Positions 6,750 through 64,000 of a stretch of 64,000 bases of DNA are shown here, one piece after another. Position numbers and translations under genes: made by a program. The first letter of the stretch is position 1. Each line of letters opens with the position of its first letter. Location: the NCBI GenBank assembly GCA_008632985.1, contig QPGO01000003.1:248001-312000 (forward strand). Reading direction: 5' to 3'. Under the pieces are notes generated by a model, which did not search any database, had not been told where the DNA came from, and worked only from the letters and a program-made list of their open reading frames with translations. Origin of the DNA: Psammoneis japonica. Its lineage: Eukaryota.

Positions 6750-8850
6750 TGCATTGCTGTTTTCCACTGTTTTCAGCACATTTCTGCATAAGATTGGGGA
6801 TGTGATGCAGCAACGGGGAGAAAACAATCTTGTGTCTCTTTGTTCTTCCTCTGCCCCAATTCCCTGAGCTGCTGTCCGCACGTGAAAAAAACCCGCGACT
6901 CAGAATTGAAAAAAAGAGCACAGCCCAAAAACATTGATGCAGGCATTTTGGGGGGGGGGGGGGGGGGGCACTGAAGTGTAAAAGAACAAAATGCAATTCT
7001 GTTTAGACTGGTGCTGCAGAGTGGAGGTCACAACAACACAAAACATCATGGCGGCGCAACTTTGTCGGTTTTGGCGGCAAGCATGAACTCCTGTGGAGTG
7101 CACACACAGAAGCATTGTGTCATTTCTACAAGAAAAAGACATTGTGCTCTGCAGGCTGCCAGACAGCTCAATCAAAAGATGCGCCATGCCGGCGCCAATC
7201 ACCAGCCATTGTTGCATGCTTTGCTGTTCACTGACAACGTCTCAGCTGGCAAGACCTTTCTAAAGTGTGGCTGCAATGTTGGGCCTGCTCAAGAACATTC
7301 AATGCTTCCTGCTGCTGGCCAAGGGGATGGCTCCAAACCACTGACATCTTCCATTGAAACTCTTCCATGCCAGCTGCAGCTCCGTCACGCCAGCCAATGC
7401 CCGACTCTGCACCATGCCCCAGGGCCCTGCCAACACTGAGACAGCGAGGGAGGGTTGGTCACAAAATCCGCCCATGGCAATTCAAACGGGAACAGAAAGT
7501 TGGTTGACCTGCAATGACTCCTTCATTCAACGCCAACAACAACATCACCATTTTCAGCCCCCACTCTAACAAATGACTGCCACTCGAATCCCAACTCGCC
7601 CCCCACTCTCCACCCTGCAGAGAGTCTCACAGAAATGCCAACAACATCATGGGGACAGGATTCTGGAGTTTCTGAGCGAGGCCATGTGCAGTGCAATTGC
7701 TCTGCAACAATGCTGCATGCAGCACACATGTGTCAATCTCATCTGCAGCACATGTCACAAATGATCAAGAGCCGCTCCACAATGAACAATGTCGAGTCAT
7801 CTTTGTTCCACTCAGTGACACAGCAAACTCATGGCAATCCACATGGTGAATCGCAAAAAGAGCACTGTTCCCAAAATTCCAAACATCGCCAAAGATGCAC
7901 CACAAAGCATCCCTCGACCCGGGAAAAACCGTGAAGCAAATGCATCGGATCTTTTCATCACACAGGCATTGACATGAGAGGGTGCTGTGCCAGCCAAATG
8001 AACAATGGGCAAGTGCCCAACACTCATGTGACCCCAGAAACCTTCAAAGCACGAATGTTCAAAATTGGCACAGCACACTTGACATGGATGACCAAACAGA
8101 AAAGATGAAAAACTTCGAGACAACGACATGCCTCGAATGCAACAAAACATGAGACACACAATGCAGCATTGAATGATTGACTTGCATTTTGAGAGGAGAA
8201 CACTTGAGTTCTTCTTGTTCTCCCATGGGGTTGCAATGGGCTTGCTTCTGCCCTCTCGGAGTGCCGGCATCTGTTTGAGCTGCTGTCTCTTGTCTCCTTG
8301 TCCTCACCATCAAGCACATGCCCAAGCTCAGAAAATTGAGCAGCAACGGCAGGACACATGCAAGGATCAGCAGGAAAAGATGCATGGATTGAAACGATGG
8401 TGAGACAATGATCCCCCAAACCAGAAGATGCGCGTGGCTTTTCCAGTGTGCCGAACGATGAACGAGTGACTTGCACTTTTGAAAGGAGAGCACTCAAGTG
8501 CTTCTAACTCATCTTCACCCCAAGGATCAAAATGGGCTCGCTCATCTTTTTCCTGAAGTCGCGTGGGCAGTTTCGTTGACAAGGAGGCAATGCCATGGAG
8601 GGCCGCACCGCCGCTTTGAATGCCCCCATCTGTTGATGGAAAACACAGAAAAAGTGCTTTCATCAGCCAATGACACAGGGCATCACTGTTGGACATGTCA
8701 CAAATTTGGCACAAATCATCGTGCAAAGCTGCGTGCACAAATTCACGTGGAAATCAAAGTTTTGCACCATGCCACCAAAACTGGAAAATCGCATTACACC
8801 CAATGTGTCCGTCGTTGTCCGCCATCGAACGCTGTGCGCATGCATCATTT
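6750..8850. other. TpA/CpG-depleted degenerate domain (probable decayed repeat/TE)
   Basis: Only 6 TA dinucleotides counted by eye in 6961-8760, versus about 17 in 300 bp of the coding region at 121-420; TG/CA excess; spurious C/H/Q-rich ORFs; G19 run at 6950-6968. Confidence 0.75.
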
Positions 8851-9082
8851 GCGATTCAATAAATGTGGATGACGTCAAACTTCAATTCGTTCTTCGGGAA
8901 GTTTCCCTGTCCGTCACTCCATCAGTTTCCCTGCAGTTTCAACGAGTTCCGGCAAAGATATCCGTCGGATCTTCTGCGTAGAACTTGTACTATCTTCTAC
9001 GCAGGGATCGGAGGGTGTATCCTTTGCCACGAGTTCTTTGTTCCAGCACACAAACATTTGTTGTGCTCCGTCGTCGTTGACC

Positions 9083-10791
9083 ATGTTGCTCTCCACCGGT
9101 CTCAAGACTCTAGCGAGTCGTCAGGTGAGTCTGGTTTCGTTACTTATCGCTCATATATTTTATGTTGCTTTTGTACAGTGAATCGGTTGTCTGAATAAAA
9201 TTGAAGCATTGATTTGACTTTGCAACATGAAACTTCTGGAAATGTCTGTTTTTGCCGTGAAAATCTTACCGTTTCTCTTTTTTTTTCATGTTGTAGGCAC
9301 GCTTTCTAACCATGTTGCATCTCGTTCCGTCACGACCTTGCAACAAACACTCATGGAGCAAGTACCCGAAAAACAAAAGAGCATTGCGGCTCTGAAAAAG
9401 GAACACGGATCTCACGTGTAAGTTATATTGCGAGGCATATAGCAAAAGATGAGGTGTTTTACCGGATGTGCTCTTTGTTTTTTGTTGCAACAGTTATGCT
9501 CACATTTCAAAATCACTGTTGTCTAAATCTATCATCACTATTATTCTAACAATCATAGTATCGGTGAAGTAACAGTTGATCAGTGCATTGGCGGTGCCCG
9601 TGGTGTAAAGTGCATGCTGTGGGAAACTTCCAATCTCGATCCCGAAGAAGGCATTCGTTTTCGTGGATTAACCATTCCCGAATGCCAAGCCGTTCTTCCC
9701 ACCTTTTCGGGAACCAAAGGAGACGGCGAACCCCTCTATGAAAGTTTGCTGTGGTTGCTCTTGACGAGCCAAGTCCCCACCAAGGAACAAGTCGATACGC
9801 TGACGGCCGATTTGCATACTCGCGCGGAAAGCAAGCTTCCCGCACACGTGGTGCCACTTCTAAACTCGTTGCCCAAGGACATGCATCCCATGACTCAATT
9901 TTCCATTGGACTCAATGCGTGTCAAACGGAATCGGAATTTGCCAAGGCCTACGCTGCCGGTGCACCCAAGACGGATTATCACGTGCACGTGTTGGAAGAC
10001 ATTCTCAATGTTCTGGCTGTGCTTCCCGAAATCGCCGCCACGATTTACCGCAATGTCTACTTTGATGGTGTTGTGAGCAAGGACACGTCATTGGATTATT
10101 CCGGTAACTTTTGTCGCATGCTCGGCTATGACAATCCATCCTTTGATGAATTGATGCGTCTCTACCTTTGCATCCATACCGATCACGAAGGTGGCAATGC
10201 TTCGGCACACACGACGCACTTGGTCGGATCGACCCTGTCGGATCCGTACCTTTCCTATGCCGCCGGACTCAACGCTCTTGCCGGTCCACTCCACGGTTTG
10301 GCCAATCAAGAAGTATTAAAGTGGATTCAAGACCTCAAGGCCAAATTCGAATCCGAGGGCAAAGAGTCAATGCCGAAACCATTACGGAATTTGCGTGGGA
10401 CACTCTGAACGCGAAAAAGGTCATTCCCGGTTACGGCCACGCCGTTTTAAGGAAAACGGATCCCCGTTATACCTGTCAACGTGAGTTTGCACTCAAACAC
10501 ATGCCGGAAGATGAACTCTTTCAAGTGGTGGATACCATTTATCAAGTCATGCCTGACATTCTAAAGGAGCATGGCAAGGTGGCCAACCCATACCCCAATG
10601 TCGATTCGCATTCTGGTGTGTTGCTTTGGCATTATGGATTTACGCAATTCCAATACTATACCGTATTGTTTGGTGTCAGTCGTGCGGTCGGTGGATTGGC
10701 TCAATTGTATTGGGATCGTGCTCTTGGATTGCCCTTGGAACGACCCAAGTCGGTTACGCCCGAGTGGTTGTGGTCTCAAGTGAGTAAATAA
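9083..10791 (+). CDS. CS: Mitochondrial citrate synthase (introns ~9125-9296 and 9418-9558; apparent 1-nt indels near 9120 and 10363)
   Basis: Motifs [64 protein letters not shown] intron 9418-9558 restores the frame ([17 protein letters not shown]). Confidence 0.93.
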
Positions 10792-11063
10792 AATCAGCGA
10801 CAAAATCAGATTGAGTTGAGTTTGTTGTGAACTTGCTTTGGACGATTGAGATTAGATGTGAAGGAGCACTGTAGGGTTATATATGATTTGGAAAGATGGG
10901 CACGGTGTTGTGCTCCAACGATAAAGAATGTACGGTAAAGAATTAGGAAAACGAGAGAGTTGGTCTCTTTCTTAGCCAATGGCACACCGCATGGGTAGTG
11001 TGGGGTGACACGAATTTTTTCCAGCATGAAACGTCCTGCTTTCCCGGCTTATGCACGCAACTG

Positions 11064-11096
11064 CTATGGATGATTCACTTTTGAACCACTGCCCTG
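11064..11096 (-). pseudogene. Remnant 3' end (last 10 codons plus stop) of a phytoene desaturase copy
   Basis: ctatggatgattcacttttgaaccactgccctg is identical to 20385-20417, the 3' end of PDS. Confidence 0.8.
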
Positions 11097-11686: not shown

Positions 11687-14600
11687 ATGAATTCTGCTTT
11701 TTCAAGGCCTACGTGGATGGCGATGGCGTTGGTACCTCTCTTGCTATCTCAACTCGCCTTCTGTCAATGTGCAACGGAGGAGAAAGTGTCACTGAAGTCT
11801 CTTCTAAAAAGCAGCCACCAGAAAGCATGGGCACAAAACCATGCTGGAAGTGAAGAAATACTGAGGATCGTGGTGGATGAAAAGGCAGAGTTACCTGATG
11901 ATCTATCGTTGTTCGTGAAATACAAAAATCGTCGCGGCATCTCTGTCGTGAAGAAATTGTCGCGCAAATACAAGAAGCTACCACAGCAACGTGTAGTATC
12001 TATCGATGGAACTGACAAAGATACATTAGAAACTCTGCTTGACGATCCCAACATTGATTTTGTGGAAGCAAATCATAAGATTCACGCGCTCTTACCGCCG
12101 ACGAGTTTCAAGTACAAGGATCAGCTGAAGCGGAGCGAGCACAGTCGTGATCTTCAGGAACAGGTTGAATACGGAATAAAAATGGTTCAAGTTGACCAAA
12201 TGTGGGAGCTTTCTCGAAACGTTGAGCAGGTTGACAAGATGACTGTATGCATCATTGATAGTGGCATGGCTCTGGGACATCCGGATCTTCCCACTGAAGA
12301 CGTGACGGGAACAAACACCGGAATTGGTAATTGGTCTATTGACCCATATGGTCATGGCACACACTGCGTGGGAACAGTCGCTGCTTTTGGCAACAATAAT
12401 ATTGGTGTGAAAGGGATTTTGCAAAACACAACGAAATTCAACCTTCATATTGCCCGAGTATTGGATCGAAGAGGAGATGGGTCTGAATTGCTGTTGCTGA
12501 AAGGTCTCGATGCTTGTCTTTCTGCAGGAGCGAAAGTCATTAGCATGAGCGTAGGAGGATCAGGATTCAGCGAAGCATCTAAAAAAGCATTCAAAAAGGC
12601 ATATGACCAAGGCGCATTGCTTGTCGCTGCATCAGGAAATTCGGGAAACGCAGACTACGCCTATCCAGCATCGTTCCCTACGGTCATGTCGGTTGCGGCA
12701 GTCGGACGGAATGAAGAAGTTGCAGAATTTTCCCAGTACAACGATCAAGTGGAGATTTCAGCTCCTGGAATCAATATCATATCTACTGTCCCAGCGAATG
12801 CATATTGGAAAGATGGCTATGATTCACTAAGTGGTGAGTGTTTGTGAGTTTTAAAACCTTCTCCTCCATCTTTGTCTAATTCCTTCCGCTCTCGTCTTAC
12901 TGCCAGGGACATCTATGGCAACGCCCTTTGTATCAGGCATTGCTGCACTGGTGTGGTCGTACTTTCCAAAATGCACCAACACTGAAATTCGCAACGCTGT
13001 TGTACGAACAGCCCTGGATAGAGGTGACTCGGGTTGTGACCAAGAACTCGGATACGGGATTGTGCAAGCAAAAGACGCATACGACTTTTTATTGCGGGAA
13101 GGGTGTCTCGCTGAAAGAGACATCAAAACGAAGCTATCAGATGGTGCAATAGGTGGTTGCAAGCAAGACCCTCTTTACACCCAACCTCCAACACCTTCAC
13201 CGACAGAATTCCTTTGTGATGACAAAGACTTCATGCTGAATCTGACCACGGATGAGTGGGGAGCAGAAACATCGTGGGACCTTGTCGATTCAAACAAGCA
13301 GGTTGTGGAATCCGGTGAAACCCATCGCAGTTCAAGAAACTACATAACGAGGCTCTGTTTGCCGCTCGATAGCTACGTCTTTACCATTCGAGACAGCGAG
13401 AATGATGGAATGTGTTGCAACTATGGCCAAGGGGGTTACTCGGTTTACTTTGACGGAGTATTGCAAGGGGCCGGAGGAGAATTTGCAGGGTCAAAGCAAG
13501 TGGCATTCGGTAGCAAGCAGATTGCCCCAGCTCTGTCCCCATCCGTGGTACTTTCATCATCCCAACCGACTTCATCGCCTGCCGTGTTCACAAGCTTTCC
13601 AACATCTAATATATCCACGGAATCAGCAAAAAGAGCTCCGAACGGGCCATGTATTGACGATGATTCTTGGTTGTTTACAACGAAGAAAGGCGTCAAGAAG
13701 CCTTGTAGGTACTTGCAAACAAAAACAGTCTCACGTTGCCAACTGATAGGCACCAACAGATTTGGAGTTCCGGTGACAGGCCTTGCTGCTTGCCCTGTGA
13801 CCTGCGGTAGTTGTCAAGAAGGTAGTCATCAAGATAGTGTTCATTCCGTGTCTCTCCCTCCCACACAAATACAAATGCCACCATCAACATCTCCTTCACA
13901 AGTACAGACAACAGAGCTCACAAGGTCGCCAACCTCGGCTCCAACGCTTTCACCGACGGCTTCTCCTTCGTCGCGACCTACCAAACTGCCCACCAAGAAG
14001 CCAACGTCGCCCCCATCCTCTGTGACTCCCTCTCCATCAGCTCGAACAACGCACTCACCTACAGCACCTCCATCAAACTCTGATCCAACATCATTTCCAT
14101 CAAGATTGCTCACTCAGAGGCCAACATTACCTCCATCCAAAGCACCAACATCATTTCCGACGTCCAGGCCAACGACTTTGCCTACGATACCACAAACCTC
14201 TCTTCCGACTCCAGCGCAGCCTACCGCACCGACGTTCTCTCCAACCAAGAAACCAATGGTTTGTGTCGACGACCCACAAGGTTGGCATGATGCAGATGGT
14301 GAACAGTACAACTGCGATTGGTATGGAAAGGATGAAAACTGCCAACAATATGGAAACTTTTTTAAAAACTTTGGTACCGTCGCCAATGTGGCTTGTTGCA
14401 GATGCGGTGGCGGCCAAATGGTTTCAATGACTGCAGATGCGACTTTGCTTCCTACAAGGCCACCAACATCATCCCCAACGCCTCGGCCTACTTCATCAAC
14501 TTCAACTCCAACACGTCAGCCTTCGTCGTCACCAACCATGCCCCCAACAAGCAAGCCAACTTTGATCCCTGCGAAACGTCCGATTTCTACCACATTTACT

Positions 14601-15119
14601 TGTGAAAGTCATAATGGCAAAGATTTTCGACTATGCGACGTGGAGGGGGGAACTGCATGTTCTGCTTATGTTGAGCTGGACGGCGATAGCTGCGACGATT
14701 ACTGCGAATCCCGTGGGGGTACATGTCTGTCCTCGGAAACTACAGCTGGCTGGGGAGTCTCATGCCGAGACACAGGTAGAGGATCCTGCCGTGACAGAGA
14801 CCACAGCAGAATATGCTCGTGCAAGCCAAATTTGATGCCTATGAAAAGTCCTGTTTCTACCACATTTACTTGTGAAAGCCACAATGGCAAAGATTTTCGA
14901 CTATGCGACGTGGAGGGGGAAACTGCGTGTTCAGCCTATGTCGAACTGGATGGCGACAGCTGCGACGATTACTGCGAGTCCCGAGGGGGTACATGTCTGT
15001 CCTCAGAAACTACAGCTGGCTGGGGAGTCTCGTGCCGAGACACAGGTGGAGGGTCCTGCCGTGACAGAGTCCACAGCAGAATATGCTCGTGTTCCTTTGC
15101 AAATAACCAGAAACGTTAA
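11687..15119 (+). CDS. Secreted subtilisin-like serine protease (S8) with multiple C-terminal Cys-rich modules; intron 12834-12906; may extend to 15357 via a frameshift
   Basis: Catalytic triad IIDSG, HGTHCVG, SG/TSMATP rebuilt across a GT-AG intron; AASGN oxyanion motif; propeptide; DGMCCNYGQGGY domain; PT linkers. Confidence 0.9.
14584..15092 (+). repeat. Near-identical intragenic duplication (270-bp period) of a Cys-rich module
   Basis: tttctaccacatttacttgtgaaag at 14584 and 14854; both encode TCESHNGKDFRLCDVEG...SRICSC. Confidence 0.9.
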
Positions 15120-15599
15120 CTACGTCAACACACGGATGTGCATGGAGGAGGAAATAGAGTGTTCTGCACACATCAAGTCACCAAGAAACTGCTGCGATGA
15201 TTTCTGTGAGCAACAAGGCGCAACCTGCATTTTCGCTAGGACAATTTCTGGTGACAAACCCAGCTGCTGGGGTGGGTGGCTTGCATCTTGCAGAGAGAGA
15301 GAGAGAGAGAGCACTGGGGACAGCTTCCTTTGCACATGTTCATTGACACAATCGTGAAACCTAAGCCAACCAAGTTCTGCATGCGCAAAGCTCGTCTATG
15401 AAGTGAAGCATGAGACCATAAAATGCCGCTCGGTGGTTGCAGTGGACACTCCTCCATGATGTGTAATAACACAGTAGCTTATCTTTCAGTTCAAATCACT
15501 GCCTCCTCTGGTAAGCGACATTATTGTCCACGATGAAATACCGTGTTACTTTTTTGGGCTGTATTGCAGTGCTGCTTCCATGCTTGTAGGCTAGGAGGG

Positions 15600-18500
15600 G
15601 AAAGTTCATCCACGACCTGACAACATCAAAACACATGGAACTGCTGCAGCGCTGCAGTGACGATGAGACACATCACTCATGCCATCAACTGCTTCTGCTT
15701 TGTATCACAATGTTGCACCATTGACCCTCCTCCACTAAACTCAAGCATCCACTCAGTTGGTACATTGGTGGAGGTGGCACCAGAACACCACAGGGGATGA
15801 CCCGGCAGTGAAGGCGGAACTGGCTTCATCGTGGGTTTCAACACTGCGAACAGCCAAGCAAATGTGCGGCACACAGCCCAGTCAATAACAGACTCAGTCT
15901 TGACATTGTCAGAAGGAGACTCTCTCCTGCATCATTGGCTGCAAGTGCTTGTTGGCAATCACCAAATGAAACTCAACGTCCATTGACATTGGCACAACAA
16001 ACAAGCTTGACTTGGTGGCATCAATGCTGGAAATGTGGCAGCAATGCAAACACAGCAAAGACTCAAAGGTGTTGCATGTTTTCTGTCACATTTGCAAGGT
16101 CTTGGGACTTGTGACAGCAGTGTTTGCTCCTGCCAAAAACAATTTTCAGAAAGGGGGGCATGTGTGCAAGGTTGACTGTGCTCGTGCCGGTAGAAAGGTG
16201 AGGACAAAGAAGGATTTGCTTTGTTGTGTGGGGGGGCTGATGTGACTTTTTGTTGTCCAAAGAACCCTGACAACTTGTTGCATCACAAGGGCAAGTGTTG
16301 CTTTGAGACTTGGGAGGTTGCTGGCTCAAATCTCAAATTCAGGGATGGAACAAAATCAAAAGTTTTCACACATGGAGCACTTCAACAATGTTCTTTTGGC
16401 AAAGATGGAAGCAGTTGCTTAGAGGGCAAAGAAAACAATGTGGGAAACCCAGCTCATGTTTGGTTCCAGTGGGACAGTGCAACACTGCATGCTGGCCGGA
16501 CACTCTTGGGCTTTCTTGGCAGCAAATTTGACAAATGTTCTTGAGAGCTTGTGCTGCATCACCCAACTCCCCACTCACTGATTTTGATGACACATGCTTC
16601 TTCTGGCAATGGCAAAGATGGTTGCCAAAGAGCAAGGGCTTGAACATGGTGGATGGCATTTGCAGGGGGGGCTGTGGGTGCATCACTTCATCCTCGTGTG
16701 TGTGATTTTCACCTGGAAGGGACAATTGCTTGGTCATTCATGCATCACAATCAAGCAGTGAATGCACTTTTTGAGTGGGGTGGATGGGATGATTTTGCAA
16801 AGGGCTTGCAAGCCCTTTGTTGTGGAGCCCAAAAGTTTTCACAGCATGTTCGTTTTGACTCAGAAAAGACAGAGTCCCACTGGAGTGGAAATGACTGAGC
16901 ACCTTGATGTGGTGGTCATGGACAATTGTTGCCTGCTGGAGGAAGTGCATTGGCACATTCAGCAACATCATGGAAATGACCAGAAGCAGCCATTTGTTGG
17001 TGCATCAAATGACTCTGTTGAGAACATTTCAGATGAAACCAAGTTTAATTCCAATGACATCAACGGAAATGATTGGTCATCAACAGTTTGACAATTGACC
17101 CAAGGTGTCACAATTTTCAAAACAATGCAGTTTAAGGGTGCAAATTCTGTTTGTGTTTTGAGCGTGTGTTTGTAAAAAGCATCAAACACAACTTGTGTTT
17201 TAATCATTTGTGATGCAATTCTGAAAAACACATGTCTCACAGTTTCCAAGCTCAGCACGCAAACAACACAACAATGGCAGAAATGCCACTTTCATTCTTG
17301 AGAACTCAGTGGGGTGTCTGGCACCTTTCTTCACAATGTGATTGGCTTTTGCACCATGAGCAATGATGTCACGAGAAAAGATCCTGGGCTCTGGGCTCCC
17401 CACCTCCACTGCATTCAGCTGGCGGAACTTTGGCCATTGTTGCACTGTTGGCCTGGTGACCTCACAACTTGCGCTGCAAGCCATTTGTGCATTTTTCCAC
17501 AACTCGTACACGGCTTTGTAAAACTCCATTTCATTTGAGTGGAAAAATCTAAAAAGACAAAAAGAGGGCCAAAATTGCACCCAAAACACCAAACAAGGGG
17601 ACTTGCAACCCCAAGCTTTTGACAGCACGGCTTCAGTTTTTGAAAGTTGCTTCAAGATTTTGCAATTTTTGACAATGTGGATTAAGACACTGACAACACA
17701 GCTTCAGATTTTGACAATTTGGAGGATGTCTCAAGCCAGCTTCTGGCCAGAGAATTTTGCGCAGAGTTTGCACTGAAAGAGCCTGCAAGCCAGTGCATTT
17801 GGGTGATTTGGCCAGCACTGCTGAACAGATGCAATGTCTTTTGGGTGTGCAAAAATTTTGCAGTTGTGCTGGCAAAACCCCCATTGCTTTGATGGGCAGA
17901 CATTGTCCAGCCAGAAGCTGGCTTGAGGATTCCCCCAAAATGCTTCAGTGCACAAAAACAGAAAATGAGGTGCAAAACCACTGAGACCATGAGCGGCAAT
18001 GGCACCTTTGCTGCTTGTGACAGGTCACTTTGTCAGCACAAAAGGCTGGCCTCATGTGGCTCATGCTGGCATTGAGTGTCTCCTCCCTTTGATGAGCTGT
18101 CATTCACATGTGGTTGCTCTTTGTCAACATGCAAGAGCTTGAAGGTTGAAAGAGGTTTTCGGAAAGTGTGGTTGTGAAGTCTTTCATGCACTCAAAAGTT
18201 GCACAAGTCACAAACTGACAGAAATGCTGTGATGGCACTCAACTCAGCACATTTCTTGGCCTTTTTTCTGTTTCTCCTTGTTGAGATTGACAAACTTTGC
18301 CAACTGGCACTTTTTTTGACAAATGTGTCTCAGCCATGGCTTGTGCCACGTTGCTGCTGATGCTGTGGCTGGTCTGCACAGCACACAATGCAAGATTTTT
18401 TGTGCCAAACAAACGCGATGTTGGAGTGTCCATTGCTGCAGTGGCATCTGGCAAATGACAGCAATTCACTTCTGATGGTGGATGAAAATCTGTTGTGAAT

Positions 18501-20150: not shown

Positions 20151-20384
20151 AAATGATTTGAGTTTGTTGTAGAGATTGGATGTGAAGGAGCAGGGTTTTA
20201 AAGGATTTGGAGAAATGGGTGCGGTTGTGCTCCAAAAGAAATAGAATTTATTGTGAAGAATTAGGTTAATGAGAAAGTCGGTCTTTGTCTTAGCTAATGG
20301 CATGCCGCATAGGCAGCATTGAGGGACACGACATTCTTCCAGCATCATACGTTCTGCTTTCCCCGCTTTTTGTGCACACAACTG

Positions 20385-22182: not shown

Positions 22183-22291
22183 GGTGAACTCGCAGAACAC
22201 AGGTAACAGTGCTGAGAAAATGAAAAACACGAAAAACACGTCATTCAATCGATGGGGTTTAGGGCTTTGAACTTAACGTACGGTATGTAAC

Positions 22292-22325
22292 CTCGCTCGC
22301 CCGCCCGCCCGCCCGCCCGACCGCC
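22292..22325. repeat. (CCCG)n microsatellite in the divergent promoter region
   Basis: ctcgctcgcccgcccgcccgcccgcccgaccgcc between PDS (-) and the 22522 ORF (+). Confidence 0.8.
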
Positions 22326-22521
22326 TACCTCGAGATAGGTCCGTCCGTCTGTCACTCAGCAGCTGTGCAAGATCGCGATCTTGTTGCGGCAAGATGCAAG
22401 ATCGTATTTTTTTCTCGGAGGGAAGCAGAAAACAGTACTAAGGCTGAAGGATTCCAGATTGAAACCAATCATAAAATCAGCATACAGCACCAGAGTGCAT
22501 TTAAAACACAAAAAGTGACAA

Positions 22522-44303: not shown

Positions 44304-44325
44304 CCAAATTTTTCGAAAAATTTGG
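44304..44325. repeat. Perfect 22-bp palindrome
   Basis: ccaaatttttcgaaaaatttgg equals its own reverse complement. Confidence 0.9.
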
Positions 44326-47620: not shown

Positions 47621-47899
47621 ATGGATAAGATGCCTTGCAACGCTGCATTGTTTGCTTTTCTAATAGATAGTAGTGGTTCCACAGTCTTCTTGCTGTGTAG
47701 AGCATCCATGCTAATGACAAGTGTTTCATTACCGGGACGTTAATGCTTTCTAAAGCATCCGTGTCCTATGCTGATGATCCCAGTAAGATGACAGTGGTAC
47801 CTAGAGTAGAGAGTTAACTAAATTTCTTTTAAGAAACGAGCGTTCGGGCATTGCTTTTTTTTTAGCTTCTGCAGCCGGCATGTCTGGGGTGGAACGGAA

Positions 47900-52010: not shown

Positions 52011-52086
52011 CTAATTGCCGTCAGAGGGAGGATTGCCACTCCCAACTGGGAGGTCTGTAAGTGGTACGGAAGAAGACAGAGAAGAC

Positions 52087-53623
52087 CTCCCACGGATCGT
52101 AACATAACGCTGTACCAGGCTAACTGGCACAGCTTAAAAAAATCGCAACGTGCGATTTTTTTGGTTCCTGGTACAAAAACGAAAAATTCTACGCAGAATT
52201 TGCGTAGCCACCATGGCGAATTTGTTTCGCGTCCACCGTCGTTGTCACCTGTTTTCACGAGGTGAGTCACTCAGGATATTGTCGACATTTGTCTATAGCA
52301 CCATTACGTGTTGGCTGAATTTTGACAAGTGCCACTCCGCGCAAGAATATCGATTTCGATTCCTTCGGTGTATGAGTCTGCCGCTGTTGTCGTCGTTCCG
52401 GTATGTTTCGTCGAGTTTGTTATTATTTCCCTCCTCTCATCCCTTTACCTATGCCTCATTCGTTTCATAATAAATATAGATAAAAGGCGCTGATGTGTAT
52501 GGCACCTTTGGAGTGTTTGAGACGAGCTCTGGACGTCGCGGCTCGTGGTTGGTGTGTTTCCAACAGACGACAGCGGTCCGGCACTTATTCTGTTTGTTTC
52601 TCGGTCCGCACGCAGATTCTTCCCCACGAAAGGGCCTCATGATTTACTTTATGGAATATGTTGATGATACAAACAGTGGTGTTCATGGATCATGTATTAA
52701 AACACGGTGTGTGAGTTCTCTGGCAAGCCAGGTGGCCTTGCAAGAAATTCCTTGAAGACCTCTCTGCATCCGATGACATTATGGACACCCTGATCTATTT
52801 GACAACCCAGAAAACTTGGTATCATTAGGAGGTCGAAAGATATCAATCTCTTGGAGGACATCTTTGCAGGTTACAACAACGTCATTCGTGGTGGATCAGT
52901 TGGTTTCAAGGAGCATTTGCAGGTGGGAAAAGGACGTGTACGTGGTTATGCTGGCAATGTTTGATTCGGAGAAGATTGGTGACAGAAACATCACTCCTAT
53001 GGGAATTATTCAGATACTGTTGGGTGGGCTTTATTCTTGCCCGAGGTGCAAAGTATCGTGCGATTGGCCGGGGTTTGTTACTCAGATCACTCCATGCAAT
53101 GAGTAGTATCTATTTTTTGCATCGAGTCACCTTTATCTGGGAATCGAGCTGGCATCTTTTCACAGTCTTATTATAACTCTCTTAGCTCTTTATTTGTTTT
53201 GTTTTCCTGCGGACCTCCTTTTGACTTCAATCCGGCCGTGTCGACGACTCGACCCGAGTTTCCCGATTCGTCACACTTACATTATGCTGGTACAGTCAAG
53301 AGAGTAAAAGTTCTGAAAGAGATCTTTCTTCACTCTTCTGTCAATCAACTTTCCAGTTGAAAGAGATGCACTCGTGTTGTTTTGGACTGGTGGTGAGTAG
53401 ACGGGGTGCTGAATGAAGTTCAAAAGCATGAGAGAATCGAACCTCTTGGTACCGGCCGGTACAATAAATAGGCGGGAGTGTGGAGTGTTACCGGCATAGG
53501 ATTGGGGTGGAGGCCAGACATTTTGTGCTATTACGGCTACGTGATTCGTACGAGGTACGTAGAAATCACGTAGAAATCTCTCTGTGCGCCAGTTGAAATA
53601 ATATATGTTACGATCCGAGGGAG
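52087..53623. repeat. Inverted repeat pair bracketing ~1.5 kb of non-coding DNA
   Basis: ctcccacggatcgtaacata (52087-52106) vs tatgttacgatccgagggag (53604-53623), 19/20 complementary, with further patchy inverted matches inside. Confidence 0.6.
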
Positions 53624-55813: not shown

Positions 55814-57610
55814 TTAGGGACAGTCCGGCACCGAACCACTATCAGCAGGGCTTCTGGGAGGCACGACACAAACAGGAGCGGACGTTGGTCCATAGTTGGT
55901 AGAACTGCAATTGAAATTGCCACCACCGGCACCGGTGCAACAAATGTCGTCACCCACTTCGTTGCAAGTGTATATGCCATCAACCGGGGTATCTGCAACA
56001 ACGGGACAAAATGGCAGATTCTGAACAACGTCTCCAAACCTGCAAAACGTTGATGGATGGGGCGGAGTGTTTTCCTCGCCAAGGCATTTTGTACCGCATG
56101 TGGTACTGCACGTCGAAGTGCCGAGCGCTCCAAGTGCGACCTTGACACATCCGCTGGTTGAAGGGCAGCATTTACCTCGGCCGTTGTTTAAGGCACTGAC
56201 AACCTTGTATGCGTCATCGCATAGGCTCTTTTTCTCTGTGGTGCATAATCCGCTACCCTGACAGACACCGTCGATACAATCCTCTGTGGGATCACATTCA
56301 GTCTCGTCGACACAACCGGGGCAGGGGTTAGCACAACTTCCACTGCCATCGCACGCATCCGAGCAGTCGCAGTCAAAGATGCAACTTTCGCCTTGGTTAT
56401 TCTTTTTTGACAAGCAAAAGTCTGCTTCGCATATGCATTCGCAGGTAACAGGGTCGCATGTGCCTCCCGCACCGTCACTGGGGCGTCCACCGCAGTCACT
56501 ATCTTGACTGCACTCTTGGAGCAAGCCCTCGGCATCAAATTTCGTCACACATCGTCCAGTGGGTGAACCAGAGGGAACGTCACTAGGTGACTGCGACGGA
56601 GCTTGGCTGGGCATACTAGAAGGTGTCGTCGACGGAACGTCGCTTGGCATGGGTACTGTGGGACTTTCACTCGGTGAATCGGACGGAACTGCTGACGGAG
56701 CATCACTTGGCGAGCTCGACGGACTGTCACTGGGTGACTGCGACGGGGTTTGGCTGGGCATACTAGTAGGAGCACTCGACGGGACGCTACTCGGCGCGGT
56801 TGATGGAACGTCACTTGGCATGAGGGCTGTGGGACTTTCACTTGGTGAGTCGGACGGAACTCCCGACGGAACACCGCTGGGCGAGCTCGATGGAACGCTG
56901 CTAGGTGACTGAGACGGGCTTTGGGTGGGCATACTAGAAGGAGCGCTCGACGGAACGCTACTCGGTGTGCTTGATGGAGCGTCACTTGCCATGGGTTGTG
57001 TGGGACTTTGACTTGGTGAATCAGAGGGACTACTCGACGGAACATTAGTTGGCATATCACTCGGTGCGTCACTTGGTGAGCTGCTTGGCACACCAGAGGG
57101 AACGTCACTGGGCGTACTCGAGGGAACACTGAATGGGACATCAGTTGGCATGTCACTTGGTGAGCTTGAGGGAGCAACAGACGGGTCGCCAGGGTCGGGT
57201 ATCAGGACAAAAGTCGGATTGGCAGAAGGCACTTCAGTTGGCACTTCGGTCGGCGCAGAAGACGGAGATAGACTCGGCTCAGCAGGAGGGTCTGTAACGT
57301 CCGGCAGAGTCGGTCTTCGAGTGGGACGAGGACCCGGTCTGGGTCCCGGTCCCGGTCTCGCGGGGAACCGTAAGAATCCTTTCCCCTTTCCCTTGCTTCC
57401 CTTTCCTTTGGCCTTCTTGGGAGGCCTCCTTTTCTTTGGGCGCCTCTTCTTCACCTTCTTTCCCTTGCCTCTCCGGGGTGGAGGTTTAGGGCGTTTGTTC
57501 CTTCGCGGCTTTCCTCTCCCCACTTTTCCTCGCTTCATATAATTGAACCGAGAGCCTGCGAGTGAACAAACAACATAGGCAAGGAGAACAAGTAGAGTTA
57601 AGTATCGCAT
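55814..57610 (-). CDS. Secreted mucin-like protein: basic K/R/G-rich N-terminus, PSxxPS repeats, Cys-rich C-terminus
   Basis: MRYLTLLVLLAYVVCSLAG signal; KGKGSKGKGKG; long SDVPSSSP-type repeats; EGF-like Cys clusters. Confidence 0.75.
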   Translation of the reverse strand: MRYLTLLVLLAYVVCSLAGSRFNYMKRGKVGRGKPRRNKRPKPPPRRGKGKKVKKRRPKKRRPPKKAKGKGSKGKGKGFLRFPARPGPGPRPGPRPTRRPTLPDVTDPPAEPSLSPSSAPTEVPTEVPSANPTFVLIPDPGDPSVAPSSSPSDMPTDVPFSVPSSTPSDVPSGVPSSSPSDAPSDMPTNVPSSSPSDSPSQSPTQPMASDAPSSTPSSVPSSAPSSMPTQSPSQSPSSVPSSSPSGVPSGVPSDSPSESPTALMPSDVPSTAPSSVPSSAPTSMPSQTPSQSPSDSPSSSPSDAPSAVPSDSPSESPTVPMPSDVPSTTPSSMPSQAPSQSPSDVPSGSPTGRCVTKFDAEGLLQECSQDSDCGGRPSDGAGGTCDPVTCECICEADFCLSKKNNQGESCIFDCDCSDACDGSGSCANPCPGCVDETECDPTEDCIDGVCQGSGLCTTEKKSLCDDAYKVVSALNNGRGKCCPSTSGCVKVALGALGTSTCSTTCGTKCLGEENTPPHPSTFCRFGDVVQNLPFCPVVADTPVDGIYTCNEVGDDICCTGAGGGNFNCSSTNYGPTSAPVCVVPPRSPADSGSVPDCP

Positions 57611-58299: not shown

Positions 58300-61200
58300 A
58301 CTAAACCCCACTACCTTTCCTCCCTGCTTCCCTGCTGTACAGTGTGTGCAGCTCCTTCTGCTCCAATGTCATCAAAGATGTCTTCCTTAGTGATCAAGGA
58401 ATGTCAAGAATTGCTTCCCATCTCGTCTTGCTGTCCCAAGAAGAGCAAATGATGAAGAAACACTCCACAAAGTGTTGAAAACCGAAAACTCCATCTACAA
58501 CACATTGGTTCTCTTGCAATGAAGCACTGCAAGAGGCTTTCCGGAGTAAAAAGAAACAGCAATCTATCCCACAAAGAGGTCGTTGTACAGATGCCACTGT
58601 AGAAGATGTGCCCGCAAGTCTCTCAGAATTTTGCTCACAAGGTTCGAGTTCTTTGGTGGAACACGCGCTTTGAATGGCAGAAGAAATGCGGATGCTGATG
58701 CTGCTGCTGCACAACAGCAACAGCAAGCAGAATTCTCTCTTACTGTGTTTTGGAACTTTGTTCTGAAACAGCCATGCGACATGCGTGCACACTGCTTTGA
58801 TCCCTCTGCAATGGAATGTCTTTTGCTCAAGTCTGCATGTCGAGTTGGAAAGCGACATGGGGAAGCTGCTCTGTTGCTTCTCTGGAATTGCTCAATGCGA
58901 TGTTAATTCTTCCACTGCAAAAATCAATGCTTGACTTGTTGTGGACAGAACACTCGCAAACGTGTCTTTGTGCGAGGCATGCGAAGCGGAAACCCAAACG
59001 AGTTGGCATTGATTTTTGGAAACCTTGGTGCAAGGGCGGGCATTGCAAACACCCAAACTACAAGGATTCAGTGCGTCGTTGTCCGAAGACCACGACGGAC
59101 AGAGCAACACTATAGAACAACAGCAACAGCAGTTGCGGCTGGGCAAAATGGGGGGGGGGGGGGACATTGAGGAGCAAACCGACGGATTGCCGTGTTGTGT
59201 GCGACAAGGAGTGTTTGAAAATTTGCTCGGAACATCGATCAAGGAGCACTGGAGAGTGTTTCTCGCATTTGCGACTTTCTGTGCTCTTTGATGCTCATGT
59301 CTAACTCAAAGAAGTTGTCGTCGAAGCAAGAATGATGGAGGAACCGGATTGGGATGTCCTGCTGCAGGCCAAGAATGAAGCATCGGACATTGTTGGTTGG
59401 CGTTCGCAACAGCCATGCGCTTTTTGGCACGACACCCGCTCCCACTGAATAGAGCATCACAATCCTCACAATTTGTTGGTCAATGGCTGCGACAAAGCAA
59501 GCTCTAAATCTTGAAGAAGGACAGTTCAAAGTTGGCTGCTTCCGCCTTGGAAGAAGCACATGAAACTGAGGACTCTTGAAAGGCTGTCAATGGAGTTCCC
59601 AATCGTTTTGCGCTGGAATTGGCCAAACTGCACACAACACGGACAAGGCTCGTGACTTGTGTGAGCATTCCTGCAGTCAAAGTTCCTGCGTGCTCAAGCA
59701 AGTTGATGACCTTGGAGCAGTGCCACGGAGTGTAGATTGAACTGGAACTTGCGCCAAGGAAAAGTGGGACGATGCACTGTCCTCAACTCTGCGTGCTGCA
59801 GCAGTGCCAAAGTGTCTTTGCTTTTCAGGTTTGCTCTTGGATGTTGAAGAATCCTCGCAAACTGTTGCTGTGTCACCATGGATTCCTAAAAATTGAGCCA
59901 TGGAACTCAAGGTGGCCACTCCCATGCACACTGTGAACTTTGTTTTGTTTCTCAAGGATCAAAAGTGCGTTGAAAAACCCTTTGCAGTCTATGAACGAGG
60001 TGTCAAACTGTTTGCTTTCCTCGTGCGGGTGCAAAATTGCTTTGGAAGAATCATCTCGAAGCCTTTGTCGAAGGATGCAGCGGATTGAAAAGGAACGAAT
60101 GCGCGGCTTGCTTCAACATTGAAAAAAAAACATGCCCTCCAGAAGAATCCTACGAGTTCTTTATGCTGGAAGGCAAGTTTGAAGTAAAACGCGGTCTGAC
60201 GAAATGTGCTCTTGGCACCGGTCGTGCCATGCAAGAAAAGGCTCCACTCAAGGAAAAGAGTGTGACCTGTCAGCTCTTTGTTGCAGCCGCGACATGAGAC
60301 ATTCATTGAGAAGGAGTTTCTGCTCTTCCTGATTGTCCTGTGGCAACAATGTGTTTGGACTGCATGCGAAAATGGAAACGTCGTTGCATGAACAAGTGGA
60401 TCGCGCACATGCATTGTTGGCGTGCGGTGCGCAACCTGCGGATCCTCGTTGGTTTCCAGAGCATGATTGTCACCCCTTTGGGTGTTGCCATTGCCTCTGA
60501 GACAGCAAAAAATTCTGAGGCAGCTTAAATGAACATTCAACACAAACGCACAAAGGCATTGCACAGGCAATCAGCTCTGCACGTGTGTGTCTCAACAGAC
60601 AAAGTTTTGCTTAATTGCATGTTTGCTTGTTCTTTGAACAGTTCACAACATTCATGTGGAAGCTCCCCCAGTGGCCCCAAATCCCAATTTTTGGACATGT
60701 CAGAGCTGCTGGCATTGGACATTGCCCTTTCTCCCACTCGCGCGCTCTCGCACCACACCTGCGCATCCTGGCTCCGGCCCCAACCGTCCCAACGATTTTT
60801 GTGCAGCAGTGCTTGCAACAAAAACATCAGAGATGATTCTTCGCAACCTCCGCAGTGCAAAGTGTGTGTGCGTTGCCTCCAATGAGATGCGCCGTTTGAT
60901 TTCGGAAAAACTCCCTCTCCCATGAGCCGCAATCTTGTTCATGGCAGTGCCAAGGTGTGCAAATGGTCGTCCCTGACAAAACTTTAAATTCTGCTGCTGT
61001 TTCGCTCATCTGTTGCCAATGTCTTTCTTTCAGCTCCATTGGCAGTGTCACAGAAGTCTTTTCTGATGGCTGCCAGCATGAAAAAGCTGCTTCATGAATG
61101 GGGACATGTTCACGGCACCTCTGTTTTTGACAGCCAGCCTCGTGAGACATGGCTGCACAGCACAAAGCCAAGAGCCCATCGCCACTGCAAGGTGGGCAGG

Positions 61201-64000
61201 AATCAAGGTTTTTCCATGCAACTTGAAAGGTGGCTTGGCACATTTCATCAGATCTCAACTTTGGGTTTCCAGCACTTTTTACAGCACCTTGTGCATGGTG
61301 ATGAGATGTGCAAGGAAATGCTGCAACATTGTGGTTGTTCGCATGCGACACTTGGGGGGAGCTCGTTTTTTCCAGAGAGCCTGAATCTTCTGCTCACAGC
61401 AGTGCACACTTTTTGGCAAACTCAGCATCTTGATGGAGCCTTGCACTGTTGCTTCCTCTTCCATGATGGTGGCAGGTGTGTGTGTGCAGCCTTCACACAC
61501 ACACATGCACACACACCCAGGAACAACCAACACTTTGCAATCTTTGGAGCTGGGTGTTTTTTGACTCGCAGCAAGAATTTGGGGGGGTTGTCCAATGTTC
61601 CTGAGTCACCTCCCTTTTCTGCAGTGTCAATGAAATGGCAACAACCTCCTTTTTCTCTCACAACTTTTTCTTCCCACTGTGCTTTCTGCATGGCCCTGGT
61701 TGGTGGCTTGGGTTGCTGGAAAGTGGTTGTGTGGAACACCCAGCTGCTTGCAAAATGCAATGTTGCAAGTGGGTTGAGCTTGCTTGGTCTCTTCTCAAAA
61801 TGTTCCTTCTGAGAGTGCTGCCTCCACACAATGGCTGAGCACTTCCAGCTCCTTTTGAAGGCTGTGTTGATGAAAATGACACCAGCACGTGGAAGTCAAT
61901 TGTCGTTTTGAATCCCACATCATTTGTTCTCTCTTTTTTTTTTCCAAATCCAAGGTCCATGAGATGCTGGCTTTTGCCTCTGTTTCAAGCATCAGCTTTG
62001 TCAAAAGGGCAGCTGCAAGAGAGAGAGGCTTTTTGCCAAGCAAGCTCATCTTCTGCTGACAACTTGGGGTGGGCAGCATGATTGTGGCAGGCACACTGGC
62101 AAGAGCTGCTGCTTGCATTGGCCATGGACTGCACAGAGACAGGATGAGAGCAGTCTGTGAGAGAATGATGCTGTTTTCTCAGACACGTCAACTTTCATGG
62201 TGCCAGCAGAGCCATTGCCACATTTGACAGCACAGAGGGCATTCCTCCAGGTTTCTGAATCCTGAAGCTGCTGGTGCAACCCATCCACCACTGCTGCAAG
62301 AGTGTTTTCTGGGGCTCAAGTTTGCAGTGACCCCAACACACACCCCAGGACTGACTGTGGGTGATCTTTGTGAGTCAAATTCTGGGCTCTGGTTCTTGTG
62401 AGTGGCAAGATTTGCAGCACTTTGCTTGTTTGTTTTTGTCAAACTCTCTTTGCTGACTCTCAAGAGCTGATCAATGTGCTCATGATCTGTTGCTTGCTTC
62501 TTTTGTCTGCCTCATGTTGAATCTCGTTTTGTGACTTCTCAGCCATGGCATGACCAGACGCAGTTGCGCCGTCATGGCAAAACACAAGCAGTTTTCATGA
62601 CAGAGTGCACCACTTTTGGGCAGCCATGCACGGGGGCACCTTGGCATCAACTCATTGCAAACTTTGTCATCATCAACATCCCAGTTTGTGCAGCTGTCAA
62701 TTGGATGTGTCCCACCTCTCTCTGGCGATCTTCCGCCTCTGTCTCGATGCGTTCCAGCCCTGGGTGGGAGCTCGTAGTGCTGGGGTGTGACCTGGTGCAA
62801 AAAAGCATGTGGGATTCTACAGGATCTAAAAATTGGAAAATGGCGAGTTTTGCGAAGCATCAGGCTTCATCAAGACTGAGGATTTTGACACCAGATCACG
62901 CCAGTTACATTCTTGAATGCCTGTGGAATGCACCCAAGCATGTTAAACTTCATGAACAAAGCTTCAGAATGCTCTGCAGCCGTTGCAAAAACCGCCATTT
63001 TTTCCAATGATTTTTTCTTTTGGTCGCAGACATGAAACCAACCACCAAATTTGCTCATGACATTGGCTTCTCTAATTCATTTGCAACATTAACTTCTCAA
63101 CGGACACTCACTTTCCATTCCTCTCACACTGTGAAATTTGAAATCATTTTCGTCCACTTCGAAAAAAAATGAATGGATGGAACCGAGCACCGTCCAAGTC
63201 GCGAAGTGTTTTGTCAGCAATGATCAACGTAAGTTGCAACCCAACAACAACCATGAGAAGCACATGATTCCCATTTCCCATTTTCTTTTTTGTTCAAACA
63301 AGCATGGGGAAAATTGGCAGGAATCACAAAGCTGTTCCACCACTGTTGTTGTAAAACAGGTGGTCACTTCAGACTTTGATCTCCTTCCAATCTCTGAAGA
63401 CAACCCTTTGCCACAGGGGTGCCGCAACAAAAGAGAAGTGATGGACAAAGGTGGGGTGCAGGTTAAGTGCGAAAGGCACGAAGAGATCATTGAGGAGCTG
63501 GCACATTGAGTTGCTCTCAATCATGAGGAAATCGATGAAAATAAAAGCAGTGATGATGAGGGGGGCAGCGAGAGTGAGATGGAGGGCGATGATGACATTG
63601 ACAACAGCAGCGACAGTTGACAACAGCACTGCATTGCATGAGTGCAACTCACATTGGCAGGCATCCGTGTGTCCACCTCTGCCCAGGTACAGAGTGCAAC
63701 TCCGTTGCATGCAGTGCCAAGAAAGAAAACAGCAGCACAGCCAATTGATGCCCAGCATCTGCCACAATGCTTGTGTGTGCATCAACATCAAAAGCTGCGT
63801 CAGTGCCCAATGCCACATCATGTCCAATGCCTTGCACACCTGCACTTGCCTTGGGAGCAAAGAAAGACAGAAACATGTCGTGAGAGATGCGTGAAGGGCA
63901 ACAATTGACAATCAAAAGAGTGCGTGCCAGCAGACTGGTTGACCGTTCCTGGCATCTGTTGCTGCAGCTGCATCCATTCCCAACATTTTGCTGCTCTCTG
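58300..64000. other. TpA-depleted degenerate domain running off the window end
   Basis: TA scarce throughout; CG partly retained at ~58500-60900 and mostly lost beyond; G14 run at 59150-59163; no credible ORF. Confidence 0.7.

Follow-up and report, generated by a model that had tools for sequence, protein, structure and literature searches.

TA-poor blocks separate islands of ordinary genes

We analyzed a 64,000-nucleotide stretch of the genome of the diatom Psammoneis japonica (contig QPGO01000003.1, positions 248,001 to 312,000; hereafter the window), in which islands of two to four ordinary genes are separated by blocks that have lost nearly all of their TA dinucleotides, 5'-TpA-3' being replaced by TpG or CpA. 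According to Pfam, the genes encode two M64 peptidases, a citrate synthase, a subtilase, an amine oxidase, a GH72 glucanosyltransferase, two FG-GAP proteins, an RlmL/THUMP methyltransferase, and a DUF1415 protein. The targets seen in the blocks are a Copia long terminal repeat (LTR) retrotransposon, two pseudogenes, and unannotatable intergenic DNA, with no viral genes among them.

Blocks were called from 300-bp windows with at most three TA, the scan being made within the 64,000 nucleotides. Eight TA-poor sub-blocks were found, covering 39.5% of the window, and in 500-bp windows normal DNA (TA observed/expected ~0.4–0.9) alternates with stretches of 0–4 TA. Six sub-blocks, called old blocks here, are depleted in both TA and CG: D1 (6751–8950; 9 TA per 2200 bp; observed/expected 0.06 for TA, 0.51 for CG, 1.80 for TG, and 1.57 for CA), D2 (15751–20200, between the subtilase and amine-oxidase genes; TA 0.06, CG 0.15), D3a (25401–26848, called as 25401–26900 and adjoining the Copia insertion site; TA 0.08, CG 0.26), D4 (42301–44050, upstream of the RlmL/THUMP methyltransferase gene; TA 0.05, CG 0.33), D5 (47951–52050; TA 0.04, CG 0.20), and D6 (58601–63950 as called, but continuing past the window end at 64000; TA 0.08, CG 0.47). 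The other two (27901–31850 and 32251–34200) belong to the Copia body, with a TA observed/expected of 0.15–0.22 and a CG observed/expected of 0.83–0.95.

Compared with these values, 0.04–0.08 for TA across the six old blocks and 0.15–0.22 in the Copia body, the DNA outside reaches 0.57. The old blocks hold 81 TA where 739.5 were expected from the outside rate (Poisson P = 3e-210), and the Copia body blocks 48 where 225.5 were expected; 87 of the 253 one-kb windows have a TA observed/expected of at most 0.25. TG and CA are raised (1.3–1.9 in the blocks vs 1.2 outside), and AA, AT, and TT show no depletion (AA 1.02–1.34 vs 1.16 outside). An initial annotation of the window had drawn six sharply bounded TA-poor domains, whose coordinates match the 300-bp-window calls, and its count of 6 TA in 6961–8760 is exact. 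Its figure of ~17 TA per 300 bp, given for a gene, was too high, the density outside the blocks being 11.5 per 300 bp. The domain that it placed at 25500–33950 is indeed TA-poor, but it is a composite of the old block at 25401–26848 and the Copia element at 26849–33954, whose 5' LTR and leader are TA-normal.

Change points were located at 8795, 15762, 20170, 25494, 42331, 44063, 48086, and 51980, and most edges are less than 150 bp wide; across the sharp ones, TA density passes from 0.9–3.5 per kb inside to 30–50 per kb outside. Only the left edges of D1 (6116–6789) and D6 (58339–58741) are gradual. Edges lie ~250–900 bp away from the neighboring open reading frames (ORFs), and one is found 10–30 bp past the stop codon of a pseudogene, where the 3' end of the amine-oxidase gene is expected. 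These positions would fit a protection of transcribed units. Just right of the D4 edge, 44063–44300 holds 30 TA in ~230 bp at a GC content of 36%, in abrupt contrast with the block; lying upstream of the next gene, this stretch is probably a promoter region.

Little else could be recognized in the blocks. No tRNA gene, Rfam family, or tandem array was found inside them. They contain 153 stop-free ORF pieces of at least 70 amino acids, of which 150 were compared with Pfam, three edge pieces being left out; 149 of the 150 had no credible family, the single credible match being a remnant of an M64 peptidase. Seven further matches (E 0.0003–0.007) were all far under their cut-offs, no Pfam family was found among the stop-free ORF pieces of D1, and none that was credible in D6. 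A tblastn search with 23 proteins of the window, the three Copia ORFs included, returned only M64 and citrate-synthase fragments, plus the self-match.

TA is converted to TG or CA

The Copia element (26849–33954, + strand) was delimited by its LTR pair, a 5-bp target-site duplication, CATGA, read from the sequence at 26844–26848 and 33955–33959, and an ORF with an RVT_2 domain. Its 5' LTR (26849–27124) has 15 TA (observed/expected 0.82), a normal density, and can be used as a reference copy. The leader (27125–27600), with 30 TA in 476 bp (0.91), also escaped, up to a change point at 27601. The gag-pol body (27601–33678) retains only 56 TA in 6078 bp (0.20) at a CG observed/expected of 0.92. 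The ORF for reverse transcriptase (RT) and RNase H (31335–33731; RVT_2, E = 4e-28) keeps its YVDD motif at 32559, and a purine-rich tract stands immediately 5' of the 3' LTR. The 3' LTR (33679–33954) is hypermutated, with 5 of 15 TA and 20 of 21 CG left.

Over 274 positions, the two LTRs differ at 11, which are six TA to TG, four TA to CA, and one CG to TG, and all ten TA changes are in the 3' LTR. The probability that at least 10 of 11 differences would fall on TA bases is 2.5e-9. Counted per adenine, A>G affected 10 of the 30 A preceded by T and none of the 112 others (0/47 after A, 0/33 after C, 0/32 after G). With 10 of 15 TA sites of the 3' LTR changed against one other change over ~244 non-TA positions in both LTRs, the change at TA outpaces background substitution by at least two orders of magnitude. 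The order of hits along the LTR (TG TG CA CA TG TG TG CA CA TG) shows no clear runs among these few sites. At their last two bases, the 5' LTR reads CA, the canonical end (27120–27124), and the 3' LTR reads TG (33950–33954), an adjacent swap of CA and TG.

The same direction was seen in two pseudogenes for which working copies exist in the window. The working citrate synthase gene (9527–10791, + strand; Pfam Citrate_synt, E = 1.6e-59 and 1e-31) has a normal TA content and is untouched, whereas a fragment of its 3' part at 19784–20141 (+ strand), at the end of D2, is hypermutated. The duplicate, which continues unhit to 20417, matches 10437–11096 with 77.5% identity over 668 nt (blastn; tblastn E = 8e-21). 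Its 16 aligned TA became TG nine times and CA twice, with five other changes and none left, and its 19 CG became TG eight times and CA six times, with one left. Likewise, the two tandem working M64-peptidase genes (2–5967, + strand), both with Pfam Peptidase_M64, are untouched, and an M64 pseudogene (47917–49608, + strand) at the start of D5 is recognized by tblastn with the gene at 2–2221 (E = 2e-148, 45% identity), its own Peptidase_M64 match (E = 1.5e-5, 24.8 bits) being slightly under the cut-off of 26. Here, 42 aligned TA gave 15 TG, 13 CA, 13 other changes, and 1 left, and 21 of 45 aligned CG became TG or CA. Double hits (TA to CG) are rare (1/42), which fits a strict need for an intact TA.

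A>G per A with a 5' T amounted to 13/33 for citrate synthase and 31/86 for M64, compared to 0.03–0.12 for other 5' neighbors. Two control pairs of working paralogs kept 24 of 57 and 13 of 24 TA (the latter being M64 copy 1 vs copy 2) and had no A>G excess at 5' T. The claims of the initial annotation that TA gives way to TG or CA and that live genes are untouched are thus borne out.

Such a spectrum recalls error-prone repair by a Y-family polymerase, where Pol eta-type WA>WG errors would accumulate in DNA that is chronically damaged or replicates late. At WA motifs, and most of all at TA, Pol eta is prone to misincorporation opposite T, and the Pol eta phase of somatic hypermutation gives A>G at TA in a targeted region, as here. 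However, that phase mutates AA along with TA, and in our data AA is not hit: A>G at ApA is at background level (7/56, 9/134, and 0/47 vs 0.10–0.17 in controls), and the AA observed/expected is unchanged or higher in the blocks. The near-complete loss of TA with almost no other change in a young LTR is also unlike patch repair, such saturation being far beyond known repair-patch mutagenesis. We therefore give this explanation only a slim chance, and the strict TA specificity that the initial annotation had preferred over it stands.

The RT ORF provides an independent reading of polarity. It was aligned with 60 homologs, and the columns with tyrosine in at least 80% of them were examined. Among 21 such columns, only 7 kept tyrosine; 9 had become Cys (TGY), 3 His (CAY), 1 Trp (TGG), and 1 Phe. 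Other conserved residues were 94–100% intact (Phe 18/18, Trp 12/12, His 19/19, Arg 31/31, Pro 25/25), and the conserved columns further included two Ile to Val, one Thr to Ala, and one Ile to Met, all of them TA to TG and three of them across a codon border. As conserved tyrosines are replaced and other residues kept, TA represents the ancestral condition, and losing it was harmful, not adaptive. In line with this, tyrosine makes up 0.7%, 0%, and 1.6% of the three Copia ORFs vs 2.4–4.8% of the genes.

Relatives of the element were gathered from metagenomes. For 78 loci measured among the best 80 of 614 confirmed matches, a choice that favors intact copies, TA observed/expected was 0.49–1.02, and the TpA signature was found in none, with 0 of 1577 one-kb windows at or below 0.25. 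Among 120 Copia homologs listed, two from other assemblies show tyrosine loss: P0213, encoded on a European Nucleotide Archive (ENA) contig of 46,825 bp, keeps 41% of 22 conserved tyrosines (13 lost), and P0178, on an ENA contig of 10,361 bp, keeps 55% (10 lost), the losses being mostly to Cys, His, or Arg. The median listed homolog keeps 95% and the next lowest 82%. Going by these two translated sequences, other hosts of this signature would appear to exist.

A purely compositional origin, with natively TA-poor foreign DNA or selection against TA, has a negligible probability. TA is mildly under-represented in most genomes, and nothing specific speaks for this origin. The blocks carry pseudogenes whose functional counterparts in the host are normal in their TA content, the replacement of conserved tyrosines is damaging, and the Copia relatives are TA-normal.

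A slower loss of CpG accompanies the loss of TpA

The old blocks are also poor in CG (observed/expected 0.15–0.51), which the initial annotation did not mention, whereas the Copia body is not depleted. Pyrimidine–purine steps number 242.3 per kb outside and 240.9 per kb in the old blocks. Relative to outside, the old blocks have lost 34.0 TA and 36.3 CG per kb (70.3 in sum) and gained 69.0 TG and CA per kb. The lost TA and CG steps have all turned into TG or CA, the loss of CG accounting for half of the TG and CA gain and for none of the TA loss.

Two distinct processes are at work, because the young Copia copy lost TA and kept CG (0.20 and 0.92, respectively). Four of the metagenome Copia loci (L069, L003, L004, and L026) show the reverse, with a CG observed/expected of 0.03–0.24 and a TA observed/expected of 0.5–0.6, that is, methylation decay without the TpA process. 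The Copia body on one side and such CpG-poor, TA-normal loci on the other indicate that the TA loss is fast and the CpG decay slow. They also make the hypermutation of the Copia element recent, as its body is TA-depleted yet CpG-normal.

Decay driven by 5-methylcytosine resembles what we observe for CG, namely a change to TG or CA (14 of 19 and 21 of 45 aligned CG in the two pseudogenes) with depletion in the six old blocks. Such decay is unable to remove TpA, proceeds more slowly, and is seen without TA loss in the Copia loci of other organisms. 5-methylcytosine is documented on diatom transposable elements (PMC9998398), and the CpG decay is the footprint expected of it in silenced diatom DNA, eroding the same blocks later.

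To the right of the Copia element, host DNA at 33960–34200 has 2 TA where 9.2 were expected (P = 0.005), up to a change point at 34228, and is CpG-normal with 12 CG. In this small sample, the hypermutation may have spread in place.

The TA-less sequence is found in a second read set

To examine the sequence itself, we compared the assembly with run X1, a separate read set from one sample and study, probably the assembly's own. X1 contains 92% of the sampled 31-mers of 42200–52100, a stretch that is 59% block. A 3297-nt X1 contig spans 17112–20408 in D2 with 13 substitutions and 8 indels at a depth of ~57, which corresponds to single-copy DNA, and a 4528-nt contig spans the genes at 20919–25445 with 12 substitutions and 1 indel at a k-mer depth of ~56.

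The assembly differs from X1 mainly by 1-bp homopolymer indels (16229, 18261, 18647, 19505, and others; G7, T6, A8, A5), and 6 of the 12 listed indels are in homopolymer runs of at least 3 bases (e.g., G7, T6, A8). We attribute the homopolymer indels to residual long-read assembly error, the pattern being typical of such an assembly when set against accurate reads, with 8 indels in 3.3 kb of block vs 1 in 4.5 kb of genes.

The TA loss could in principle have been produced by sequencing, base-calling, or polishing at modified bases of heterochromatin. In nanopore data, modified bases are a source of transition-type miscalls; the CpG decay of the blocks makes their methylation probable; and the assembly does have indels of the long-read type. 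However, the assembly and X1, with different error profiles, agree on the TA-less sequence, which the X1 contigs carry at normal depth, and strand-specific miscalls would yield a mixed consensus instead of clean TG or CA. The Tyr to Cys or His signature is seen in P0213 and P0178 as well, which come from other assemblies. In addition, Illumina reads of the chlorarachniophyte Bigelowiella natans gave calls of the same mutation type, according to a preprint (10.64898/2026.01.13.699255). An artefact is thus very improbable, and as far as reads were compared, X1 does not restore TA, which the initial annotation had named as the sign of a base-calling error.

Sequence context and targeting

Survival of TA in the old blocks depends on the neighboring bases. 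Relative survival over NTAN contexts was 0 for ATAC, 0.02 for ATAT, 0.05 for GTAC, 0.065 for ATAA, 0.09 for CTAC, 0.11 for CTAG, 0.17 for GTAA, 0.34 for CTAA, and 0.58 for TTAA. The hit order is TAY > TAG > TAA, TAC and TAT going first, and some of the surviving TA may be newly created. For 49 hits, the base 3' of the hit A was C 22 times, T 15, A 7, and G 5, compared to C 15, T 14, A 12, and G 8 on the unhit strand.

The process is not triggered by homology, since it leaves the working paralogs intact, hits the 3' LTR but not its 5' twin, and affects DNA that is nearly single-copy. Past the block edge at 20170, the citrate-synthase duplicate goes on for ~270 bp with normal TA and CG, so that the edge cuts through the duplicate. 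X1 depth was compared for two old blocks, D2 and D3a; it is ~56, the single-copy level, in most bins, ~58–61 and thus single-copy in D3a, and 87–150 in the left 2 kb of D2.

This is what separates the locus from fungal repeat-induced point mutation (RIP), with which it otherwise has much in common: RIP also acts on DNA, block by block, with near-saturating transitions that ruin mobile elements and duplicated genes and leave the neighbors intact. Its chemistry is the reverse, RIP being a C>T change mainly at CpA that creates TpA and lowers GC, where here TpA is destroyed and GC raised; the initial annotation was right in calling it non-RIP. A true RIP-like trigger, by which duplication would be sensed through homology pairing, would be suggested by the two blocks that contain duplicates of nearby genes and by the domain formed by a multi-copy retrotransposon. 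Diatoms, especially centric ones, also encode DNMT4, which is related to fungal RID and has no known function (PMC9998398). However, RIP hits both copies of a duplication, and here the working citrate synthase, the two M64 genes, and the 5' LTR, which is as repeated as the 3' LTR, are spared, the duplicate goes unhit for 270 bp past the edge, and D2 and D3a are mostly at single-copy depth. A homology trigger is contradicted within the window and very unlikely. The earlier proposal of a process acting on silenced or repeated DNA therefore holds for its confinement to non-functional DNA and not for the repeats.

Some variants hint at repeated independent hits. Among the 320 places at which X1 differs, 256 are transitions. 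Relative to the window, the 40 variant rows listed comprise 6 TA to TG or CA, 7 CG to TG or CA, 10 in the opposite direction, and 17 unclassified, and 8 of the 10 opposite ones form four adjacent swaps between TG and CA (15165–6, 15169–70, 16292–3, and 28152–3). Copy- or allele-specific swaps of this kind are expected if the same ancestral TA or CG was struck on one strand in one copy or allele and on the opposite strand in another. At 28152–3, in the Copia body, this copy reads CA and every contig covering the site reads TG, so differently hit Copia lineages have both amplified.

Beside a block edge, 15092–15425 is covered by a half-depth contig (~30 vs 56) with 26 listed differences within 330 bp, five of them TA and four of them CG to TG or CA. 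This contig may stem from the other haplotype, in which the edge would be shifted, or be paralogous to the 270-bp tandem repeat (14551–15091).

Nature of the process

The observations are best explained by an endogenous, TpA-specific hypermutation process with the same signature as one described in B. natans, a reading to which we assign a probability of about 80%. Such a process would convert the T:A pairs of 5'-TpA-3' in diatom chromosomal DNA to C:G, giving TpG or CpA according to the strand hit. It would be confined to sharply bounded, non-functional blocks, sparing the neighboring genes, and would come close to saturation, and together with the slower and separate decay of CpG to TpG or CpA, it would turn TA and CG steps into TG and CA. 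The type of substitution, its strict need for a 5' T, its polarity, its confinement to blocks, and its independence from CpG decay and homology are established, as is its action after integration and on both strands. As the initial annotation had held, the process acts on DNA, because the LTRs of one insertion differ after integration, both strands are hit within 274 bp, and near-single-copy blocks without recognizable transposable elements are hit.

In mutation-accumulation lines of B. natans (Mettrop et al., bioRxiv 10.64898/2026.01.13.699255), two integrated viral regions took up 231 of the 302 nuclear single-nucleotide mutations; 230 of these 231 were A>G or T>C, and all 230 were on TpA. 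The rate in the viral regions was ~6e-7 per site per generation, and only some lines were concerned. Three sequence-level features are shared with our window: the changes are almost only A:T to G:C, always on TpA and giving TpG or CpA by strand, and they fall in discrete regions, at rates orders of magnitude above background. In B. natans, the larger target, an integrated giant virus, is transcriptionally silent.

There are also differences. B. natans is a chlorarachniophyte, hence a rhizarian, and not a stramenopile like diatoms, and its targets are giant-virus and virophage insertions, where ours are an LTR retrotransposon and intergenic blocks, close to single-copy, that contain host pseudogenes. 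TA observed/expected is near saturation here, at 0.04–0.08, vs 0.45 in the B. natans region derived from a nucleocytoplasmic large DNA virus. Our differences are fixed and theirs arose de novo in culture. We find CpG decay in the same blocks, and the preprint mentions neither CpG nor diatoms. The 3'-neighbor preference TAY > TAG > TAA is reported here. A system of this kind is now described in B. natans; for diatoms, the view of the initial annotation that none is known still holds, as our literature searches, one of them crowded with other senses of "TPA", turned up no account of TpA-specific hypermutation in them.

Several points weigh against this explanation. X1 is independent as a read set, not as a culture, and its platform is not on record. 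The sequence cannot tell whether A or T is attacked, TA being palindromic, and the 3'-neighbor preference is modest (a pyrimidine in 37 of 49 cases vs 29 of 49 on the unhit strand). The remaining points concern the Copia element. Its family is very high-copy, and an uncertain share of the TA hits of this copy may be common to other copies. A TA-normal island formed by the 5' LTR and leader (26849 to ~27600, 45 TA) lies between an old block and the hit body, which simple chromatin spreading does not explain. The sense strand of the body gains more TG than CA (observed/expected 1.49 vs 1.28), and its GC content of 56–60% is above what TA loss alone adds to relatives at 40–53%. Part of the Copia TA loss may predate integration, or be linked to transcription or to complementary DNA (cDNA).

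The Copia body, and it alone, could instead have been altered by an A-specific, ADAR- or APOBEC-like editing of RNA or cDNA during retrotransposition, built up over cycles. Clustered transition hypermutation of retroelements is indeed the work of ADAR, by A-to-I editing of double-stranded RNA, and of APOBEC3, by C-to-U editing of minus-strand cDNA. The sense-strand excess of TG, the abundance of the family with its many near-identical words, the amplification of differently hit lineages inferred from 28152–3, and the sparing of the 5' LTR and leader would agree with such an origin. However, editing by these enzymes precedes integration and affects a single strand in each event, whereas the LTRs, identical at integration, are now set apart by 10 TA hits (6 TG, 4 CA) that are all found in the 3' LTR and involve both strands. 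ADAR favors a 5' U (preprint 10.64898/2026.01.13.699255), but its neighbor preference is loose, not the strict 5' T found here. The host flank at 33960–34200 is TA-poor too, and near-single-copy blocks with host pseudogenes share the signature, as does other non-retroelement DNA, which leaves five of the six domains unexplained. Editing of this kind is therefore unlikely, and we retain the TpA-specific process on DNA for the element as well.

As to the chemistry, we favor a polynucleotide deaminase that would turn adenine into hypoxanthine, the latter being read as G at the next replication; we hold the odds of this to be even. The U-A-C of the anticodon loop is the motif edited by TadA and ADAT2-3, and the TAY-first hit order recalls it. 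The authors of the B. natans work propose an ADAT2-like enzyme, without proof (preprint 10.64898/2026.01.13.699255). Alternatively, the attacked base could be thymine: the T of TpA would be modified, for example by a TET/JBP-type oxidation to 5-hydroxymethyluracil, and would subsequently pair wrongly with G or undergo faulty repair, with T>C as the outcome, which on the opposite strand appears as A>G at TpA. Because TA is self-complementary, all data agree with T>C at RpTpA no less than with A>G at TpApY, and 5-hydroxymethyluracil of dinoflagellates is enriched at TpA and TpC. On the other hand, we know of no T modification that yields clean, saturating T>C transitions, and the B. natans authors favor A-deamination, again without proof. 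An attack on thymine is, for these reasons, rather unlikely.

For the hypermutation process itself, the position of the blocks and the accompanying CpG decay suggest that targeting follows silent, methylated chromatin, and that the effect would be the inactivation of mobile or defunct DNA, a role in defence. Putting these elements together, we tentatively consider, at less than even odds, an old chromatin-guided DNA adenine-deaminase defence, shared at least across the stramenopile, alveolate, and rhizarian (SAR) lineage by diatoms and chlorarachniophytes, which would do the job of RIP with the opposite chemistry. It would still be active here, acting in episodes on silenced blocks and, with methylation decay, erasing TA and CG, and would have remodeled ~40% of the locus; the TAY preference would reflect descent from TadA or ADAT2-3, and P0213 and P0178 would mark further hosts.

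Natural, targeted A:T to G:C hypermutation of chromosomal DNA has one prior report, the 2026 B. natans preprint. New here are a stramenopile host, a retrotransposon and host pseudogenes as targets, the near-saturation, and the joint footprint with CpG decay, and the process is probably widespread and old rather than peculiar to one species. The diatom material constrains the mechanism by its sharp edges, an LTR pair that serves as a built-in clock, a separable CpG decay, and the 3'-neighbor preference. Diatoms can be engineered, so the enzyme could be found by knockout, and a naturally occurring deaminase that acts on adenine in chromatin DNA would be of interest for base editing. For annotation, the loss of TAA and TAG stops and of tyrosines from the blocks creates long false ORFs and hides transposons and pseudogenes from similarity searches.

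Further features of the Copia element and the genes

The Copia family is very abundant in X1, with summed depths of 50,000–116,000. The frame changes of the Copia ORFs at 30170 and 31335 coincide with one extra G in most other X1 copies (13 contigs with about two thirds of the depth at the first site, 8 contigs with about half at the second). Two 1-bp deletions in short runs of G, belonging either to this copy or to the assembly, interrupt what would otherwise be one long gag-pol frame.

Among the genes, the GH72 protein has its best named relatives in Thalassiosira profunda (63% identity) and Skeletonema menzelii (58%). An ORF at 44632–46242 without Pfam family contains tandem repeats with periods of 33, 27, 21, 45, and 39 nt, including nine 39-nt copies at 45810–46160; its product is rich in Gly, Ser, Lys, and Pro and, judging from this composition, is probably a secreted or cell-wall protein. 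A gene for a PT-repeat protein includes 171-nt repeats (2.5 copies) at 56557–57140, and the 3' end of the subtilase gene carries a 270-nt tandem duplication, 91% identical, at 14551–15091.

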